A stretch of DNA of 64,000 bases, taken from positions 20,336,001-20,400,000 of the forward strand of contig CM069164.1 in NCBI GenBank assembly GCA_035221665.1, written 5' to 3'. Shown here in pieces: positions 50,679-64,000 of the stretch. Under the pieces are notes generated by a model. It made no database searches and was not told where the DNA came from. It saw only the letters and a list, made by a program, of their open reading frames with translations. Source of the DNA: Okamejei kenojei. Taxonomy: Eukaryota. A program made the translations under genes and the position numbers. Position 1 is the stretch's first letter, and each line of letters starts with the position of its first letter.

Positions 50679-51531
50679 CTAAAGTAAGTGAAGATTGGCA
50701 AAGATTGTAATGAAATTGTCTGCCACTGTGATTGATTTACAATGGCAAATATGCTTGTATAAAACAAATGAGTACATAATTTGAACTATATAAACATACA
50801 CATTATAGGTTTCAAGTATGGTATTTTTTTTTAGAGACACGGGTAACTGCAGATGCTGGAATCTTGAGCAAAACTTATTGTGCTGCTGGAGGGAGGAGGA
50901 AACCGAGGAAGGGTCCCCATAGGAAACATCTCTTGTCCATTCCATCCACGGATGTTATCTGACCCGCTGAGTAGCTCCAGCACTTTGCGTTTTACAGTCA
51001 CTTTGCAACCAATCTGACCAGTCGCCCGAGAAAGGACCCGGGGAGCTGTCCATGGTGGTTCCAATTGCAATCATTAAAATATACTTCAGCGAATGCATGT
51101 TTACCCTTGGCCTTGATCCAAAATCAGCTAAAGGACCTGCGAGTTGAAAATCTCACCCCAGTTGACAAGATAATCGATACCTTCCACGTCAAGCAACGTT
51201 TTCGACTGCATGTGGGGGACAGGGAAATCCCCGGCCTCTGGTTTCCTCCATCTTGTTGTCACACAGTTATAAACGCAGGCAAACATTGGTAAGAGGGCAA
51301 CTGGCTTGGGGAAAAACTGCCGCAACAAATGAGCAAACGGAAAGCCTCGTTTACCGGATTAGATTTAATCTAGCACGCGATTTGAATTAAAGCAGTAAAC
51401 GACAGGGACGCGTCTTGTTGGCTGTTTGAAAGTAAACTGGATTTAAAATGTAAATACATTCGTCAAAACGCAGTGGGAGCGCGGCGGTGCGGCCACGCAC
51501 AACCACCCATGCACGATCCGAGCCGGCTCAC

Positions 51532-52090
51532 CTGTAGCCCAGATACATCGCCTCTTTGCTCCCCAGCAGTTCTCGCAGGTCATTCCTGGCAGACAGCGTC
51601 AGCCTCCTGGCGGCCGAGTCTCCGACAGCGATGGCCACTATTCGCCCTCTGGGTTGGCGGCGTAAAAACTCCTGCAGCCGCCTGCTCTCATCCGCCCAGA
51701 GGTGAGTGTCGAAACGGTGGGCTGCGAGCACCTTGGCCGTGCCGGGATCGATCACCCTGATGTTGATGCCCCTGCTACCCCAGTACCTGTCAAAGCGGTA
51801 AGCCCCAGACTGCAGGCCACCGGGGTAGAGAGTTTGGGCTAAAAATGTCCAAGACAAGGTTTTCCTTCCGTGCAATTCCAAAACACCACCTTTGTCCACG
51901 CCAATGAACTTCTGACCAAAATGCTCCACGTTTAGTGCATCTGTCGACTTTCCGTAGAGAGTAATAGTGGCGCTGGAAATATAGGGGCATTTTTCCGCTC
52001 CGATGTGCAGCTCGCCCCCGTTCCTGATCAGAATATAGCGAGCTTTCAGAGTGATAGGGGATTTCGGCGCATCGTTGAACACGAGTTTAC
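51532..52090 (-). CDS. CEMIP2-like: Exon 4, G8 domain and first GG domain
   Basis: KLVFND...GGELHIGAEKC...RFDTH...GRIVAIAVGDSAA...YLGYR; ttttgcAG / GTGAG; 559 nt. Confidence 0.96.
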
Positions 52091-52365
52091 CTGCAAAATA
52101 ATGTCCATAGTAAGGTCACCGATGGTCACCAGTGGTGATTTTACCACCCCGCTCTACCCTCGCACAGAAATCCCATCACAAAAATAATCCAAGACTCAGA
52201 TGTATTTAGCATCACCCACACTTTCCAACTGTAAATAAAGGCAGCATCTATTCTGTCAGGAAGGAATGTGAAAACCTATGCATAAAACAGAGTCTCAAAG
52301 AAGAAAAACAGTTTGATTTGGGAATTGTTTACAAGTATGAAAGACATTTATCAAATTAAACTTAC

Positions 52366-52506
52366 CCCCATTCTCTATAATAATGGAATGTAGCGAGGCA
52401 GAAGACTCCAGTTTTAGGAACATTCCCCGTCCAATCTTAACCTTCTTATTTTCATGATGTCCAGGGTTCCAGGGTAATAAATATGGGGCCTTATCTGGGC
52501 AATCCA
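52366..52506 (-). CDS. CEMIP2-like: Exon 3, start of G8 domain (DCPDKAPYLLPWNPGH...IENG)
   Basis: ctcttttAG acceptor, GTAAG donor, 141 nt, phase 1-1. Confidence 0.93.
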
Positions 52507-52594
52507 CTAAAAGAGAATTCTCATTCACTATCACATGTGGTTGCAATTTCTTAATATATAGTGTTCAAATGTTGATAACAAGAAAGTTACACAC

Positions 52595-52640
52595 CTGTTG
52601 TATAAACCAGTGTGCGGTGCACAAATGGGCTCCGGCTCAT
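52595..52640 (-). CDS. CEMIP2-like: Exon 2 coding part, MSRSPFVHRTLVYTT (exon 2 probably spans 52819-52595)
   Basis: ATG at 52640 (aggATGa) with in-frame stops upstream; donor CAG|GTGTGT in phase 1 matches exon 3; acceptor ttctgatttctAG at 52820. Confidence 0.55.
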
Positions 52641-52968
52641 CCTGCCGCTGATGCTTTGAGTTTAATCCTAGTTTCAAGACTGTCAACGTCCCTCGGAAGA
52701 GGGGCAGGTTTGCGATGGATTATTGATAGATAATCCATACTTATTATAGCAGAGGGTCCAGGCGGGTGGTTGATGGAGAATCACAATGGAGAAGGCAGCA
52801 CAAAATACAAACTAGCAGCCTAGAAATCAGAAACTGTTTGGCACGTACTACAGTCAGCGCAACTCCCTGTACCAGTCCTGCCCCACACACTCCCGCCACG
52901 CAGATCACCCTGTGCCAACCTGGCCCCGACCACCCGCTCGCCGCAACACCCACCCGGGTAGTGCGCAC

Positions 52969-53128
52969 CTGTAGCAAGTTGGGTGCAGCCAGAGAGCGTT
53001 TCCCAGGCTCCGGCCGCTGATGTCCGTCTGTCTGCCGCTGATTGAGAAGCTCTGATCGCTGTGGGCTGGTGTCAGTCAGTCTGTCTGTCTGTCTGTCCCA
53101 GCGCCGCCGCCGCCGCTCGCCGCCGACT
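52969..53128 (-). other. CEMIP2-like: Exon 1 (5' UTR, no ATG)
   Basis: Runs from the Inr to donor CAG|GTGCGC at 52969/52968; contains short (GGC)n and (GACA)n tracts. Confidence 0.65.
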
Positions 53129-53241
53129 GCCCGCAGCCGGCAGTCACAGCTCTATTTATACCCAGCTCGCTGGCCGCTCACCTCGCCCGGCGACACCGCA
53201 CCGCCGCCCCGCCTCCCCGTGCTCATTGGCTCGGTCCGCCC
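53124..53241 (-). promoter_or_regulatory. Core promoter: CCAAT box, GC boxes, TATA box and initiator
   Basis: Minus strand: CCAAT 53229-53225, GGGGAGGCGGGGCGG about 53218-53204, TATAAATAG from 53160, Inr-like GGCAGT with its A at 53128 (32 nt after the TATA start). CpG-rich context. Confidence 0.8.
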
Positions 53242-53334
53242 TCTGTGACAGCGAGCGGCTGCCGCCCGCCCGCCGAGGGGGAGACTCCGGCCCTCGGGGG
53301 AAGCCAACCGGCCGCCCCATCCCAGCTCAACACC

Positions 53335-54560
53335 ACCACATCCTTCACGCCCCTCTCCACACCCCTCACATCCATCACACCCCTTACCTCCCTCACACCT
53401 CCTCGTCTCCCCTCTCCACACCCCTCACATCCATCACACCTCCTCGTCTCCCCTCTCCACACCCCTGCACCTCACCTCCTCTCCATACCCCTCACTCCCT
53501 CTCAACACCCATCACACTGACACTCCTCATCTCCCCATCCACACCCCTGCACCTCACCTCCTCTCCATACCCTCACTCCCTCTCCACACCCCTCACATCC
53601 ATCACACCTCCTCGTCTCCCCTCTCCACACCCCTGCACCTCACCTCCTCTCCATACCCCTCACTCCCTCTCCACACCCATCACACTGACACTCCTCATCT
53701 CCCCATCCACACCCTCACTCCCTCTCCACACCCCTGCACCTCACCTCCTCTCCATACCCTCACATCCATCACACCCCTTACCTACCTCACACCTCCTCGT
53801 CTCCCCTCTCCACACCACTGCACCTCACCTCCTCTCCATACCCCTCACTCCCTCTCCACACCCCTCACATCCATCACACCCCTTACCTCCCTCACACCTC
53901 CTCGTCTCCCCTCTCCACACCCCTCACATCCATCACACCTCCTCGTCTCCCCTCTTCACACCCCTGCACCTCACCTCCTCTCCATACCCCTCACTCCCTC
54001 TCCACACCCATCACATCCATCACACTGACACTCCTCATCTCCCTGTCCACACCCCTCACTCCCTCTCCACACCCCTGCACCTCACCTCCTCTCCATACCC
54101 CTCACTCCCTCCCCACACCCCTCACATCCATCACACCCCTTACCTCCCTCACACCTCCTCGTCTCCCCTCTCCACACCCCTGCACCTCACCTCCTCTCCA
54201 TACCCCTCACTCCCTCTCCACACCCATCACACTGACACTCCTCATCTCCCCATCCACACCCCTCACCCCCTCTCCACACCCCTCACCTCCCTCACACTCA
54301 TCTCCCCATCCACGCCCCTCACACCTGCACCTCACCTCCTCTCCACACCCTTCATCTGCATCACAGCCCTCACCTCCCCCACTCCCCTCCCGCACACTTC
54401 TCATCCTCCCTCCACACCGCTCACCTCCCCCACATCCTTCACCATCCCCACCTCATCACTTTACCCCCACAGCTCTCTCGCCCATCCCATCCACATCCTT
54501 ATCGCACCTCTCCCATCTTTTTATCACCATTACACCCTCACCTCATGCCCCCTCTCACTT
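53335..54560. repeat. C-rich compound minisatellite upstream of the promoter
   Basis: Shuffled modules CCTCACATCCATCACACC, TCCTCGTCTCCCCTCTCCACACC, CCTGCACCTCACCTCCTCTCCATACC, CCTCACTCCCTCTCCACAC; almost no G on the plus strand. Confidence 0.92.
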
Positions 54561-54999: not shown

Positions 55000-57030
55000 C
55001 AATAACCATGGTGGACTTCAACCTACGCATATACCATGGAAACCAAATTAGCAGCAGTAGGATGGAGGATGTATTCACAGTATCCATACAAGGTGGGATT
55101 TTTAGAGTTCTATGTTGTGGAACCAATTAGAAAACAGGCTATTTTAAATTCAATGTGCAATGAGAAAGGACTAATAACGTGGGTAAAAAGAATGATTATA
55201 TTACCGAAAAAAGTTTGCAAGTGAATTAGTTCTATTGCAACCCTGATCTTAAAACGAAACAAAACCAACTATGAATGCATGAGGCACCTATGGTTCTGAT
55301 AAGTTGAAAATCTACTTTAAAAATGTCTGACAGTAGACAACCAATCTGATATTTAGAGAATTAATACATAGATTACAACAAATACATTTCTATTTTAAGG
55401 CAGTAAAACACCAAAAATGTATGGAAGTATTAATGGAACTTAAAGTCGATAAATCCTGGGACTCACGACTTAGTGTTTTTACCAAACCTTAAAACCTGGC
55501 AGTGGAGATATTGGATGTATTGATTGTCAACTTCCAGTTTAAGACCAGCTAGCCTGACATTGGTTGCAGAGCAAATGTAGGAATCTATTATTATGGAAGT
55601 GATAGAAGGGCACATTGAAAGAAATTATAAGATTCAGCTGTCAACCTAGATTTATGAAAGGGAAATCAGATTTGATATTGTAGTTAACAAAATTGCATAA
55701 GTATAAACCCGTGGTTGTGCAGTATTCAAATTTTCATAAGATTTAATTGGAAAATGTGATACTATGGTAATATACTGCTGATTGGAGATTAGTTAATGAG
55801 CTAGGTTTGGAGACTGAACCTAACGGAGTGCCACAGGGGTTGGTGCTGGGGCCCAGGTGTGTGGGGGCTTGGATTCTTGGAGTCAGAAAGAACGGAAAAA
55901 TGTCCTCTGGCCCACCTAATCTGTGCCAATTTGGACGAGGGAGTCAAGGGGTATGGGTTAGTCCATGCATTTTAGTATGGCATATGAATAAAGTCACCCA
56001 TGGTAGGCTGACCCAGAAGATTAAGGTGGATGTGATTAACAATGACTTGGTCTTATGGATTCAGAAATGGCTTAATGATGGAAGACAGAGGATTGTGGTG
56101 GATGGAATTCAATCTGAGTAAATGTGATGTGTGGAAACATTGAGGTACAGAGGGATATTGGGGTCCGTCAACAACCCTGCAAGTGGCAACACAAGTAGAT
56201 AGAGTGGTAAAGCAGGCATATGGTATGCTTGTTTTCATAGCTCAGGGCATCGAGTACAAGAGCCAGGAAGACATAATACAGCTTTATAGGACATTGATTA
56301 GGCTGCATTTGGAGTATTGCATCCAGTTCTGGTCAGTAAGGGTGTGGAGGCTTTGGAAAGAGTGAACATCTGGAACATCCAGGTTCAGGAACAGCTTCTT
56401 CCCCACAGCCATCCGGCTATTAAACACAACATCAAACAAGCTCTGAACAATATCTGTTTATTTATTGTATATATATATGGTCTATGGTATATAGACACAC
56501 TGAACTTTTATCTCCTGTTCTGTATTATGTTTACATATTCTGTTGTGCTGCAGCAAGCAAGAATTTCATTGTCCTATCTGGGACACATGGCAATAAAGCT
56601 CTCTTGACTTGACTCTTGAGAGGCGGTTTACCAAAATGATGCCTGGGATTAGAGGGTATTGCCAGAGGTTGCATGGGGACATATGAGAGGTACAGATAGG
56701 ATAGATAATAAGAATCTTTTTCCCAGGATGGAAAAATCAAATACTAACGGGCATAGCTTTAAGGTGAGAGGGGCAAAGTTTAAAGAAGATGTGTGGGGCA
56801 AGTCTTTTTACAAAGAGGGTGGTGAATTCCTGGAGTGGTGGCTGAGGCAGATATGATTTAAGAGACTTAACGTGGCATTTAAGAGACTTTTGGATAGGCA
56901 CATGGATATGCAGGTAGTGGAGCGATATGGATTACGTGCAGGCTGCTAAGAGTTGGTCTTGGCATCTTGTCCAGCACAGACATTGTGAGCCTAAGAGCCT
57001 GTTCTTGTGCTGTATTGTTTTATATTCTAA
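55000..57030 (+). mobile_element. Cluster of decayed CR1 ORF2 fragments with a nested insertion
   Basis: GVPQGLVLGP, WIQKWLNDGRQRIVVDG, LYRTLIRLHLEYCIQFWS and GHSFKVRG motifs. Confidence 0.8.
56364..56616 (+). mobile_element. 3' end of a Rex1/Babar-like non-LTR element inserted in CR1
   Basis: RFRNSFFPTAIRLLN-like end, AATAAA and (gacttgactctt) tail; the CR1 sequence resumes directly afterwards. Confidence 0.6.
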
Positions 57031-60800: not shown

Positions 60801-63800
60801 TTTTCACTGAAATTAAAGTAGTAGATAATAAATATGCCCCTCCACAGGAGATGATAAATATTAAATAGAAACGCTAGCTGTGGGAATATTAGACAGAAGT
60901 AAAGGTTTAAAATGATTGTGAAGAACATTGTTTAATCTCTTTGGATAAATTTGAAATGTATAGATTTACAGCATGTTATACTTTTGTGTATGAGATTGCA
61001 AGTATCTTTAGATAGATACCATCTTGTCCATGATGACAAACTGGTAACTCTGGAAACCAGGGGGCACAATCTTCTATTTTTTGAATAGGCAGAAAATATT
61101 TTGAGCACAACATATTCACAGAAAGCAATGTGATGTTATGGGAAATGTTTACAAATCAAAACTTATTATTATTTTCAATCAGCTTGTATGTCCCATTTTA
61201 GATTGCTATTTTTCATTGCTACATTATCTAATCAATATTGATTAGTAAATACTTAAAAAGCGTAAAAGGTTAAAAATTCAGACTAATTAAAACTGCTCTC
61301 AGAGATTAATTCAAACTCCTCACATAAACAATAGCAAAAACAAATTTGCATTTAATATGTGGCTTTCATCCATTCAGAATGCCCAACAGCTTCACATCCA
61401 TTTTATGTTGATCTGCATTCAACAACCTAACAACAATGTACAAGGAGAATTCACAGAAAAGGAGTGATACCGTTTGGTGCCAATGGATATACAGATAGAG
61501 CCCCAGTTAAATATCTCATTTCAGGTCTCAGGAGTGAGACATGAATTCAACATTCTGACTGAGCAAATATAAGTAGATGCCACAGATCATTCATCGCTAA
61601 TATCAATAGACTTTCCAGTGAAATTGATATGTTTACAGTAGGACACATGCAAAATAAGTTTATCACTAGTTATGTTTTGTTCTGGTGAGGGAATCTCCTT
61701 ACAATAAGAACTGATTCTCTTTTATAACGCAATGGCTAACTAATTATTTTGAATATAGTTTGAAGACACTACCAAAACAAAGAGCTGTTCATTCATCATC
61801 ATTGTAAACATTACGAAGTTAAAAGTGGCTATTAATGGATTAATAAATTACAAGCACATACAATTTTCACTTAATCAGTGGTATCCCAATTGCCATCTAA
61901 CTCGGGTTCCATTGGGCTGGAAATAGCACAGTCAGCTTTGTTGCAAACAGTGGGTTTTACACATTGATATATCCACTGCCTTTCAATAACTATACGTATT
62001 TTAGCAGGTATAATGACCGCATGAAATACAACAGATTTTTTATTTTGCAAACAGAGGACAAATGATTTCTATTTTTTTTAATCAAGTCATAGAGTCATAC
62101 GGCATGGAAGCAGGTCCTTCAGCCCAACTTCCCCTTACCGACCAACACTGAATTGGACATGTGGAGGGAAGAGTTTAAAATAATTTAAATTTCTTAGCAG
62201 TATGGCCGGTATTGCTAATATTGCCAATTTATTAATGGTTTACATTATATATTGAAATGTTTTAAGTAAGACATGAATGCACAGTCTAAGTAATGTAGCA
62301 CAGAAACTGGCCCTTTAGTCTATCTTACCCATGCCAACCAAGATGCCCCATCTATGGTAGTCCCATTTGACCCATATCCTTCTATACCTATCCCATTGAT
62401 ATACCTGTCCAAATATCTTCTAAACGTTATGATAATACCTGCCTCAACTACCTCCTTTAGAAGCTCATTCCATATATCCACTGTCTTTTGTGTAAAAAAG
62501 TTGCCCTTTTTTTAAGTTCCTTTTAAATCTTTTCCCCCTCACTTTAAACCTATGTCCTCTGATCTTGATTCTCCCATCCTGGGTAAAGACGCTGTCATTT
62601 ACCCTATCTCTTCCTCTCATGGTCTTATACGCGTTTTATGTTTCTGAAACATCAAATTATCTATTTACCAAGGACGATCAAGTAAATACTAAGTGAGAAA
62701 CAGTTTTGCTCAGGGCAGCTTTTATGTAAGCCTGCTGAAAGTGGAGCAAAATATAATCTCAACAGCCAAGCTACCAGATGTCATTTATTTCAGAAAAGGT
62801 ACTCTGACTGTTCATTAGGTGGCAGCACCAGCAGCACTGTGGAGAGAAAGTTGCTGAAAGTGGGTGTAAAATTACAGAAATATATGATTTCTCTCTCCTG
62901 CTGGGGCAATATATATATATAATTAATTGGAAAAAAAATAATAGATTGGATAACTAGGAGATTGAAGAAACTGTTGATAATGTTGACTTACTTAATGGAA
63001 TCTTGAGCTAAACACAAAATGCTGGAGGAACTCTGAGGGTCAGGCAGCTTCTGGGGAGGGAATAGACATGATGTTTCGGGTCTTGATCTAAAACACCGCC
63101 AATCCATTCCCTCCCCAGATGCTGTCTCGCCTACTCAGTTTGCATATACTAAATAATCAGTTGGCTATCTTTCTTTTGATTTTAACAGTGATTCCACATG
63201 ACATCTTTTTTTTTTAACAGCCCATGTAACACACATTAAAATGACAGGTATTTCTACCTCAATTGATTTTATGTTACTAACTTTCTATCACCTTTTAAAC
63301 ATCATCAGTACACCCAAGCTTATCTCATGATAGGGTGGAATTTCCTCTTTTTAAAGTAAATATATGTGTGTCATTCTCTATTAATGGCCACCTACTAAAT
63401 ATAATTTCTTGATTGTGCTTTTAATGATTTTATTATCAAAAAAAAAAATTCTCCTTTTTCTCATTAAAAAAGGAACCCTATGGCTTGGTGCCAGTCTGAA
63501 TGAATTTAATGACGTGTTTCATCTCGTGTCCTATCTATATTATTCATATATCAAACATCGTGTCCAACACCACTCAAATTTGTCAGTCAATGATGGCAAT
63601 ACTTTGAGATTAGTGTATAATTTATTCAGGATTTGTCCAACAAAATCTATGTATTCGGGATAAATAGTAGCACGAAACTCATTGACCTACTCAGTGCGAA
63701 GTCCTGTCAGTGCAACAGTATGGAGCACGAAACAAATGGGAAGAATTGGATTGCACCCAAGATGTTTGAGAAAGTGAAATGATCATTATACACTGCAGTT

Positions 63801-64000
63801 GCCATGCACTAATAACATATAACACAGTCTGGACCAAGTAAGGGTCTTGGCCGAACTCTACCTTTAAAGGACTTTCTGTGGGTCCTGTTCCTTTTCAGCC
63901 ATTTTAAGACTGTAAAAACAAAGCAAATGGATAGACATAACAAGGAAAAGCATGGGACATTCTGACAAATCATCTAGAAAAATAACATACACAAATGGAT

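Follow-up and report, generated by a model that had tools for sequence, protein, structure and literature searches.

Comparison with known members of the CEMIP family

CEMIP2 (TMEM2) and CEMIP (KIAA1199, HYBID) have the same core, made up of a G8 domain, two GG/ILEI domains, a beta-helix and domain X. A cleavable signal peptide and a WxxW insert mark CEMIP, whereas CEMIP2 lacks the insert and has an N-terminal tail followed by a hydrophobic helix. The hyaluronan-degrading activity of human TMEM2 is disputed (PMC10276149, PMC10206443); the first of these two reports states that joint change of H248 and A303 abolished the activity of mouse TMEM2, and the second reports four cysteines of the TMEM2 ectodomain as unpaired in the crystal structure. 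In the human CEMIP gene a TATA box and a CpG island accompany a non-coding exon 1, which is followed by a first intron of 94 kb (PMC3435267).

The window analysed here is a 64-kb stretch of the genome of the skate Okamejei kenojei, and the gene on its minus strand encodes a protein 96-97% identical, without gaps, to skate RefSeq entries named 'cell surface hyaluronidase (CEMIP2)-like', such as Amblyraja XP_032906156 (long) and XP_032906160 (isoform X6, short). These records have the same 48-bp exon, isoform X6 has the same 15-residue start, and nothing substantial differs; the gene and its short isoform are already in databases, as automatic annotation. Compared with human and mouse CEMIP2 and PDB 8C6I, the skate protein has all of the core domains and no WxxW insert (as checked on the Amblyraja orthologues), is 55-56% identical, and keeps R265, D273, D286 and 20 disulfide cysteines; an N-terminal tail and hydrophobic helix like those of CEMIP2 are seen in CEMIP2-like orthologues. 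Unlike CEMIP2, the CEMIP2-like protein falls in a separate clade, has an extra stem of ~190 aa between helix and G8, and is probably encoded next to CEMIP, as indicated by records of other species. CEMIP itself, the probable tandem neighbour, is 46-47% identical over the same core domains and its TATA/CpG promoter and non-coding first exon resemble a predicted internal promoter of the skate gene, but it differs in its signal peptide and WxxW insert, and skates have their own CEMIP gene.

At the UGT1A and clustered protocadherin loci, many first exons feed common downstream constant exons. The skate locus would resemble these clusters in long-range splicing over neighbouring paralogous units, and would differ from them in that one first exon would feed two separate paralogue bodies via two donors.

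The original prediction, made from the letters of the window, had read this gene as a CEMIP2-type hyaluronidase with neither membrane anchor nor signal peptide, since the exon at 52595-52819 in front of the G8 exons encodes no hydrophobic leader. We find it reasonably probable, taking all parts together, that the gene is instead a third CEMIP-family member with anchor exons further upstream, and that the exon in question is the 3' end of a first exon driven by an internal promoter, likely that of CEMIP. The features on which this reading draws are collected in Table 1.

Table 1. Features of the skate CEMIP2-like locus, in coordinates of the window
Feature	Position	Strand	Basis
Other 20 coding exons, to the stop codon	4583..50678	-	gene model
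G8 and first GG/lectin-like exon	51532..52090	-	similarity, gene model
Most 5' exon shared by both forms (start of G8)	52366..52506	-	model, contigs
Short-form leader, 15 codons, non-hydrophobic	52595..52640	-	sequence, Amblyraja isoform X6
Read-through part of first exon to far donor 52595 (includes 52819-52595)	52595..52968	-	X1, X3 and X5 contigs
uORF, 33 codons, out of frame, TGA overlapping ATG 52640	52637..52738	-	sequence
CpG island round the predicted internal promoter	52850..53330	.	GC 0.69, CpG o/e 0.85; whole window 0.35
Internal non-coding first exon, near-donor form	52969..53180	-	X1 and X5 contigs
Putative TATA box TATAAATA, motif match	53153..53160	-	sequence
Putative CCAAT box, motif match only	53225..53229	-	sequence
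Imperfect C-rich tandem array, directly upstream of the predicted internal promoter	53336..54451	.	1.1 kb
48-bp coding exon of long form, phase 1 at both ends, skippable	63862..63909	-	tblastn, splice sites, contig
Candidate 5' extension of the 48-bp exon, in-frame ATG and hydrophobic run	63910..63973	-	match, hydropathy

Gene model and family placement

A script-built model of 23 coding exons, running from 63909 to 4583 on the minus strand with every intron GT-AG, gave a gapless, collinear alignment with three skate proteins at 96-97% identity. The 22 exons from 52506 to 4583 (minus strand), which had been described as intact, are so: all are bounded GT-AG and give an open frame of 1288 aa, 96.7% identical to Amblyraja isoform X6 with no gaps. 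Over the G8 exon (51534-52088, minus strand) the identity with the 'cell surface hyaluronidase-like' protein of Amblyraja radiata is 96%, and PDB 8C6I was matched by a window exon with an E value of 1.2e-57. Pfam G8, GG/ILEI, CEMIP beta-helix and domain X all scored above cut-off in the long and short Amblyraja forms, themselves 96-97% identical to the window protein.

A FastTree analysis of 31 selected sequences (1227 columns, midpoint root only) gave the window protein a clade of its own, separated both from CEMIP and from CEMIP2 with a support of 1.0 at each split; the tree contains no cartilaginous-fish CEMIP2, none being present among the 120 listed of 542 matches. Five species, X. tropicalis, Discoglossus, Mixophyes, Pogona and Gavialis, are represented in it by both CEMIP2-like and CEMIP2. 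The assignment to CEMIP2 was therefore replaced by that of a separate paralogue, as the window protein lies outside the CEMIP2 clade. It also lies outside the CEMIP clade, with no signal peptide directly 5' of G8 and no WxxW insert, and it combines membership of the CEMIP2-like clade with an orthologous upstream exon. Judged by tree and exon structure, the CEMIP family has a third paralogue ('CEMIP2-like'), distinct from both CEMIP and CEMIP2, and the window gene is its orthologue in this skate.

Proteins labelled CEMIP2-like in databases come from sharks, skates, gar, sturgeon, eels, amphibians, reptiles and birds. No mammalian member was found among the 120 listed of 233 matches, an absence from which we infer that mammals have lost the gene. 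Experiments on CEMIP or TMEM2 in chick or Xenopus can be confounded by this third paralogue. ABHD17C proteins co-cluster with sturgeon CEMIP2-like, probably via a fused model, which hints that ABHD17C is the upstream neighbour. In the human genome CEMIP2 adjoins ABHD17B and CEMIP adjoins ABHD17C, and because of these neighbours CEMIP2-like may be the genome-duplication partner of CEMIP2. No paper on a third paralogue or on its overlap with CEMIP was found in the literature searched, from which most subscription journals were absent and in which supplements might list the gene; in the part of a 2025 review on HYBID and TMEM2 that was available, the words 'paralog' and 'evolution' do not occur (PMC12423501).

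With respect to activity, the skate protein has Y and R in place of H248 and A303 of mouse TMEM2. Since position 303 varies also among CEMIP orthologues, these substitutions predict little on activity. As a variant that occurs in nature, CEMIP2-like bears on the question of which residues confer activity on the family.

An internal first exon with two donors

Splice evidence was taken from contigs of four public runs (X1, X3, X5 and X6) aligned to 51400-53335, which come from related species (three coded organisms, three studies). No run is recorded as RNA, and two carry the flag 'probably DNA', but the 52090/52366 intron is skipped in every one of the four, with zero depth inside it. Contig depth is no basis for ranking isoforms, only 30 letters are printed for each loose end of a contig, and the gap in cover of run X6 over 52595-52998 carries no weight.

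Three junction contigs are unspliced across 52819, the 5' boundary originally proposed, and reach 52886, 52934 and 52998; no splice at 52819 is listed in the contigs of the runs. The stretch in question is thus part of a long first exon and not a 225-bp internal exon. At its other end, the GT donor at 52595 joins exon 52506 in frame, and this junction is present in contigs of three of the four runs (X1, X3 and X5, from two studies and two organisms). Read from the minus-strand ATG at 52640, the frame gives MSRSPFVHRTLVYTT on its way through donor 52595 into the G8 exons, which confirms the peptide originally proposed; it is also true of this frame that in-frame TGA, TAG and TAA codons lie upstream and that it has no hydrophobic run. 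RefSeq isoform X6 of Amblyraja (XP_032906160) opens with the same leaderless peptide. The leaderless RNA is real, an alternative RNA with an open leaderless frame; what is not supported is the reading of the whole gene as one without anchor and signal peptide.

The leaderless RNA starts in the region of the internal TATA box and CpG island, where a promoter is predicted; one contig extends to 53180, above the TATA box, so that the start site is not fixed. The internal first exon contains short GACA and GGC repeats, and the G8/GG coding region at 51450-52100 is likewise CpG-rich (o/e 0.88), as if the island reached into the gene body. In contigs of X1 (4856 nt) and X5 (2432 nt) the same first exon ends at a second, nearer GT donor, 52969, and continues into near-identical loose ends, for which no match was found in the window at up to 3 mismatches. 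Both branches of run X5 open with the same 30 bases (52998-52969), as expected at an assembly-graph fork. As the contigs show, transcripts from the CpG-island region at ~53130-53180 branch at 52969: those using the near donor skip the more than 52 kb of window that remain and join a partner, probably CEMIP, and those reading through to donor 52595 join exon 52506 to give the leaderless RNA. The internal promoter behind the short RNA is a more interesting point than the leaderless form itself.

The far donor may be very old, as elephant-shark gene models suggest: in translation, 52600-52553 (minus strand), which covers donor 52595 and the beginning of the 88-bp intron, agrees with them at 9 of 11 residues.

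Partner of the near donor

Donor 52969 probably joins CEMIP, the likely next gene downstream, and both transcription units would then overlap; that the units of CEMIP and its paralogue do overlap is likewise probable in our judgement. CEMIP itself is absent from the 64-kb window, and the lines of evidence are all indirect. In a catshark and an eel there are fused gene models, in which CEMIP2-like comes first and CEMIP second on the same strand, and in several species the two have consecutive accessions or locus tags. In a Carcharodon record CEMIP is isoform X1 and a short CEMIP2-like is isoform X2, again with consecutive accessions, and in X. laevis both proteins stand under locus tag XELAEV_18018337mg; such shared gene records may reflect a shared exon. 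The X1 contig with the partner sequence is 4856 nt long, compared with 4732-5255 nt for contigs bearing close relatives of skate CEMIP. In Xenopus, a short match of 8 out of 9 residues (E 0.006 for a single query out of 34) connects a CEMIP model, in its 5' extension, with the start of a CEMIP2-like model, with low-complexity sequence scoring higher both in the test and in the reversed control. Human CEMIP, as described above, has the same type of promoter.

When the 30 partner letters were compared with the back-translated CEMIP extensions of two sharks, the match was weak: for one shark it was equalled by 59 of 3000 random 30-mers from the window and by 78 of 3000 shuffles, for the other by 1142 and 978 of 3000; against back-translated shark CEMIP they ranked 4 of 91 pieces. 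No exact match to the human AP-1 core, as given in PMC3435267, was seen by reading at the corresponding position in the skate promoter. A partner that is missing from the window and only weakly like shark CEMIP 5' sequence would also suit a locus in which the internal promoter is the gene's own alternative promoter, with donor 52969 joining a non-coding RNA or a gene other than CEMIP and the anchor still upstream. We regard this arrangement as unlikely, if less so than the alternatives discussed below, given that fused models of other species put CEMIP next on the same strand, that the two genes share records in Carcharodon and X. laevis, that the contig size fits CEMIP, and that human CEMIP has a very long first intron as well as the same promoter type.

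If the CEMIP promoter does lie inside its paralogue, promoter edits would hit both genes and the long first intron of human CEMIP would have a simple explanation. A fuller version can be drawn, an ancient interleaved locus in which one intronic promoter and two donors switch between secreted CEMIP and a translated, leaderless, intracellular CEMIP2-like, the 94-kb human intron being the footprint of the lost paralogue; taken whole, with a regulated switch and a working intracellular protein, we hold this to be improbable.

Coding potential of the short RNA

Between 53130 and 52595 there are two ATG codons, at 52738 and 52640, so ATG 52640 is not the only one on offer as had been stated. The first is out of frame and has an A at -3 and a G at +4 (AGTATGG), a stronger context than that of ATG 52640. 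The short RNA likely yields little working protein, because this stronger ATG comes first and because the ectodomain is rich in disulfides: of the ectodomain cysteines of mouse TMEM2, 24 in all, the skate protein keeps 20 and has lost just those four that were reported unpaired in the crystal structure. Such a fold is made for passage through the secretory pathway, although the existence of the long form would by itself be reason enough for the cysteines to be retained. The leaderless RNA would then be a likely by-product giving little folded protein: ribosomes would come to ATG 52738 before ATG 52640, and in the cytosol a disulfide-rich ectodomain would fail to fold.

Among the proteins fetched for comparison, the 15-residue leader matched the Amblyraja model only. 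Eleven short models from nine other cartilaginous fishes, among 70 cluster members listed, start at a later Met within the common exon, and in gar, frogs and salamander the starts of the short models are unrelated. That short models recur in jawed vertebrates is compatible with an internal promoter that has been conserved, and a function for the short form is also possible. Such a function, in which leaky scanning to ATG 52640 gives a working cytosolic or unconventionally secreted protein, would agree with the open 1288-aa frame, with a junction found in two studies and two organisms, with a purine at position -3 relative to ATG 52640, present both in the window and in X5, and with leaderless models in skate, gar, frogs and salamander, a spread from sharks to salamanders that could mean selection. 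We think it improbable all the same, in view of the stronger upstream ATG, whose frame overlaps the start at 52640, the lack of conservation of the leader beyond skates among the proteins compared, and the retained disulfide cysteines, with the reservation already made for these.

A role for the 33-residue uORF peptide, or for decay of the short RNA as a means of tuning the locus, seems more improbable still. The strong start context of ATG 52738 speaks for it, as does the fact that both differences listed inside the uORF (52643 and 52679) are silent in its frame, compared with five listed in the preceding 82 bases. These are two sites only, however, no atlas match of the peptide exceeds 0.80 (all are at 0.80 or lower), and the MMSRS start in Amblyraja would imply a uORF stop one codon earlier there.

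The long form and its predicted anchor

The exon before the G8 exons is not the only one, and an unseen upstream coding exon, which the original prediction had left as an option, is the correct explanation. The tBLASTn search proposed with that prediction, carried out with ray orthologue proteins (Amblyraja, Pristis and Rhinoraja), found 63910-63863 identical at 16 of 16 residues; the corresponding exon, 63909-63862 on the minus strand, has AG and GT at its borders and keeps the reading frame when joined to exon 52506. A contig of run X1 continues past 52508 into 30 letters that match 63864-63893 exactly, with 559 bases upstream, and one of run X6, which has 1038 bases upstream of the common exon, reads GKTSKTNNEH (hand-read) past the 52506 junction, the residues that skate proteins have just before those of the 48-bp exon. 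The 48-bp exon is skipped in run X6 and in two skate isoform X3 models. In contigs of related species, then, both this exon and its predecessor are spliced onto 52506, and the claim of a family member without anchor or signal peptide is left unsupported.

In CEMIP2-like orthologues the N-terminus is ~290 aa long with a hydrophobic helix, 210-390 residues preceding the first common exon in long forms. A hydrophobic N-terminal segment, either an anchor or a cleaved signal (15-residue hydropathy of at least 1.9), was present in 34 of 35 long orthologue forms, and an RxxR motif followed it in 26 of the 35; these forms were hand-chosen, one per species, with short and partial models excluded. Four family leader profiles run against 2867 frame pieces of the window gave no significant leader anywhere, so that the anchor exons would lie beyond position 64000. 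With an earlier coding exon at the window edge, and an anchor just before it in relatives, the gene is likely not anchorless. Of the signal- or transmembrane-encoding exon spliced onto 52506 against which the leaderless reading had been set, the joined upstream coding sequence was found, and the hydrophobic segment is known from the orthologues. An upstream promoter would thus give a form of ~1580 aa with a cytoplasmic tail, hydrophobic helix, an often RxxR-bearing stem, G8, GG and beta-helix; this protein would be directed into the secretory pathway, and shedding may follow. An anchorless hyaluronidase gene is thus probably not what the window holds; the bearing of the locus on hyaluronan turnover and gene evolution remains.

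A 135-codon open frame lacking an ATG (53151-52744, minus strand) spans the internal first exon and holds a hydrophobic run across 52819. As a decayed leader this run ranked 7th of the 2867 frame pieces against the family profiles, with an E value of 2.8, no better than chance. It is what could be cited for a targeting sequence recently lost or hidden by an assembly indel, with the leaderless form as sole product, a view we find barely credible: it would take two shifts and a start codon, the contigs of three runs show no listed indel from 52595 to 52882, which removes the assembly-error option, the upstream exon is intact and joined in X1, and Amblyraja has the same short peptide as well as a long form.

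Directly 5' of the 48-bp exon, 63973-63866 (minus strand) matches the start of isoform X2 of the stingray Hypanus at 89%. An AG-ATG 64 bases 5' of the exon opens an in-frame hydrophobic run (15-residue hydropathy 2.61) followed by basic residues, and this extension overlaps a T-rich pyrimidine tract; it could be a short alternative leader or merely a conserved pyrimidine tract.

From sharks to birds the orthologues also share a conserved stem (~residues 165-295 of the orthologue long form), whose exons would lie beyond the window; it is ~110 residues long, has two cysteines that never vary, and often follows an RxxR motif. It corresponds to no Pfam family and had no usable atlas match. Some turtle models give the N-terminus and stem as a separate protein of 231-284 aa. 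Within the long intron, translations of ~55700-56900 and ~62300-62700 give the impression of retroelement-like fragments.
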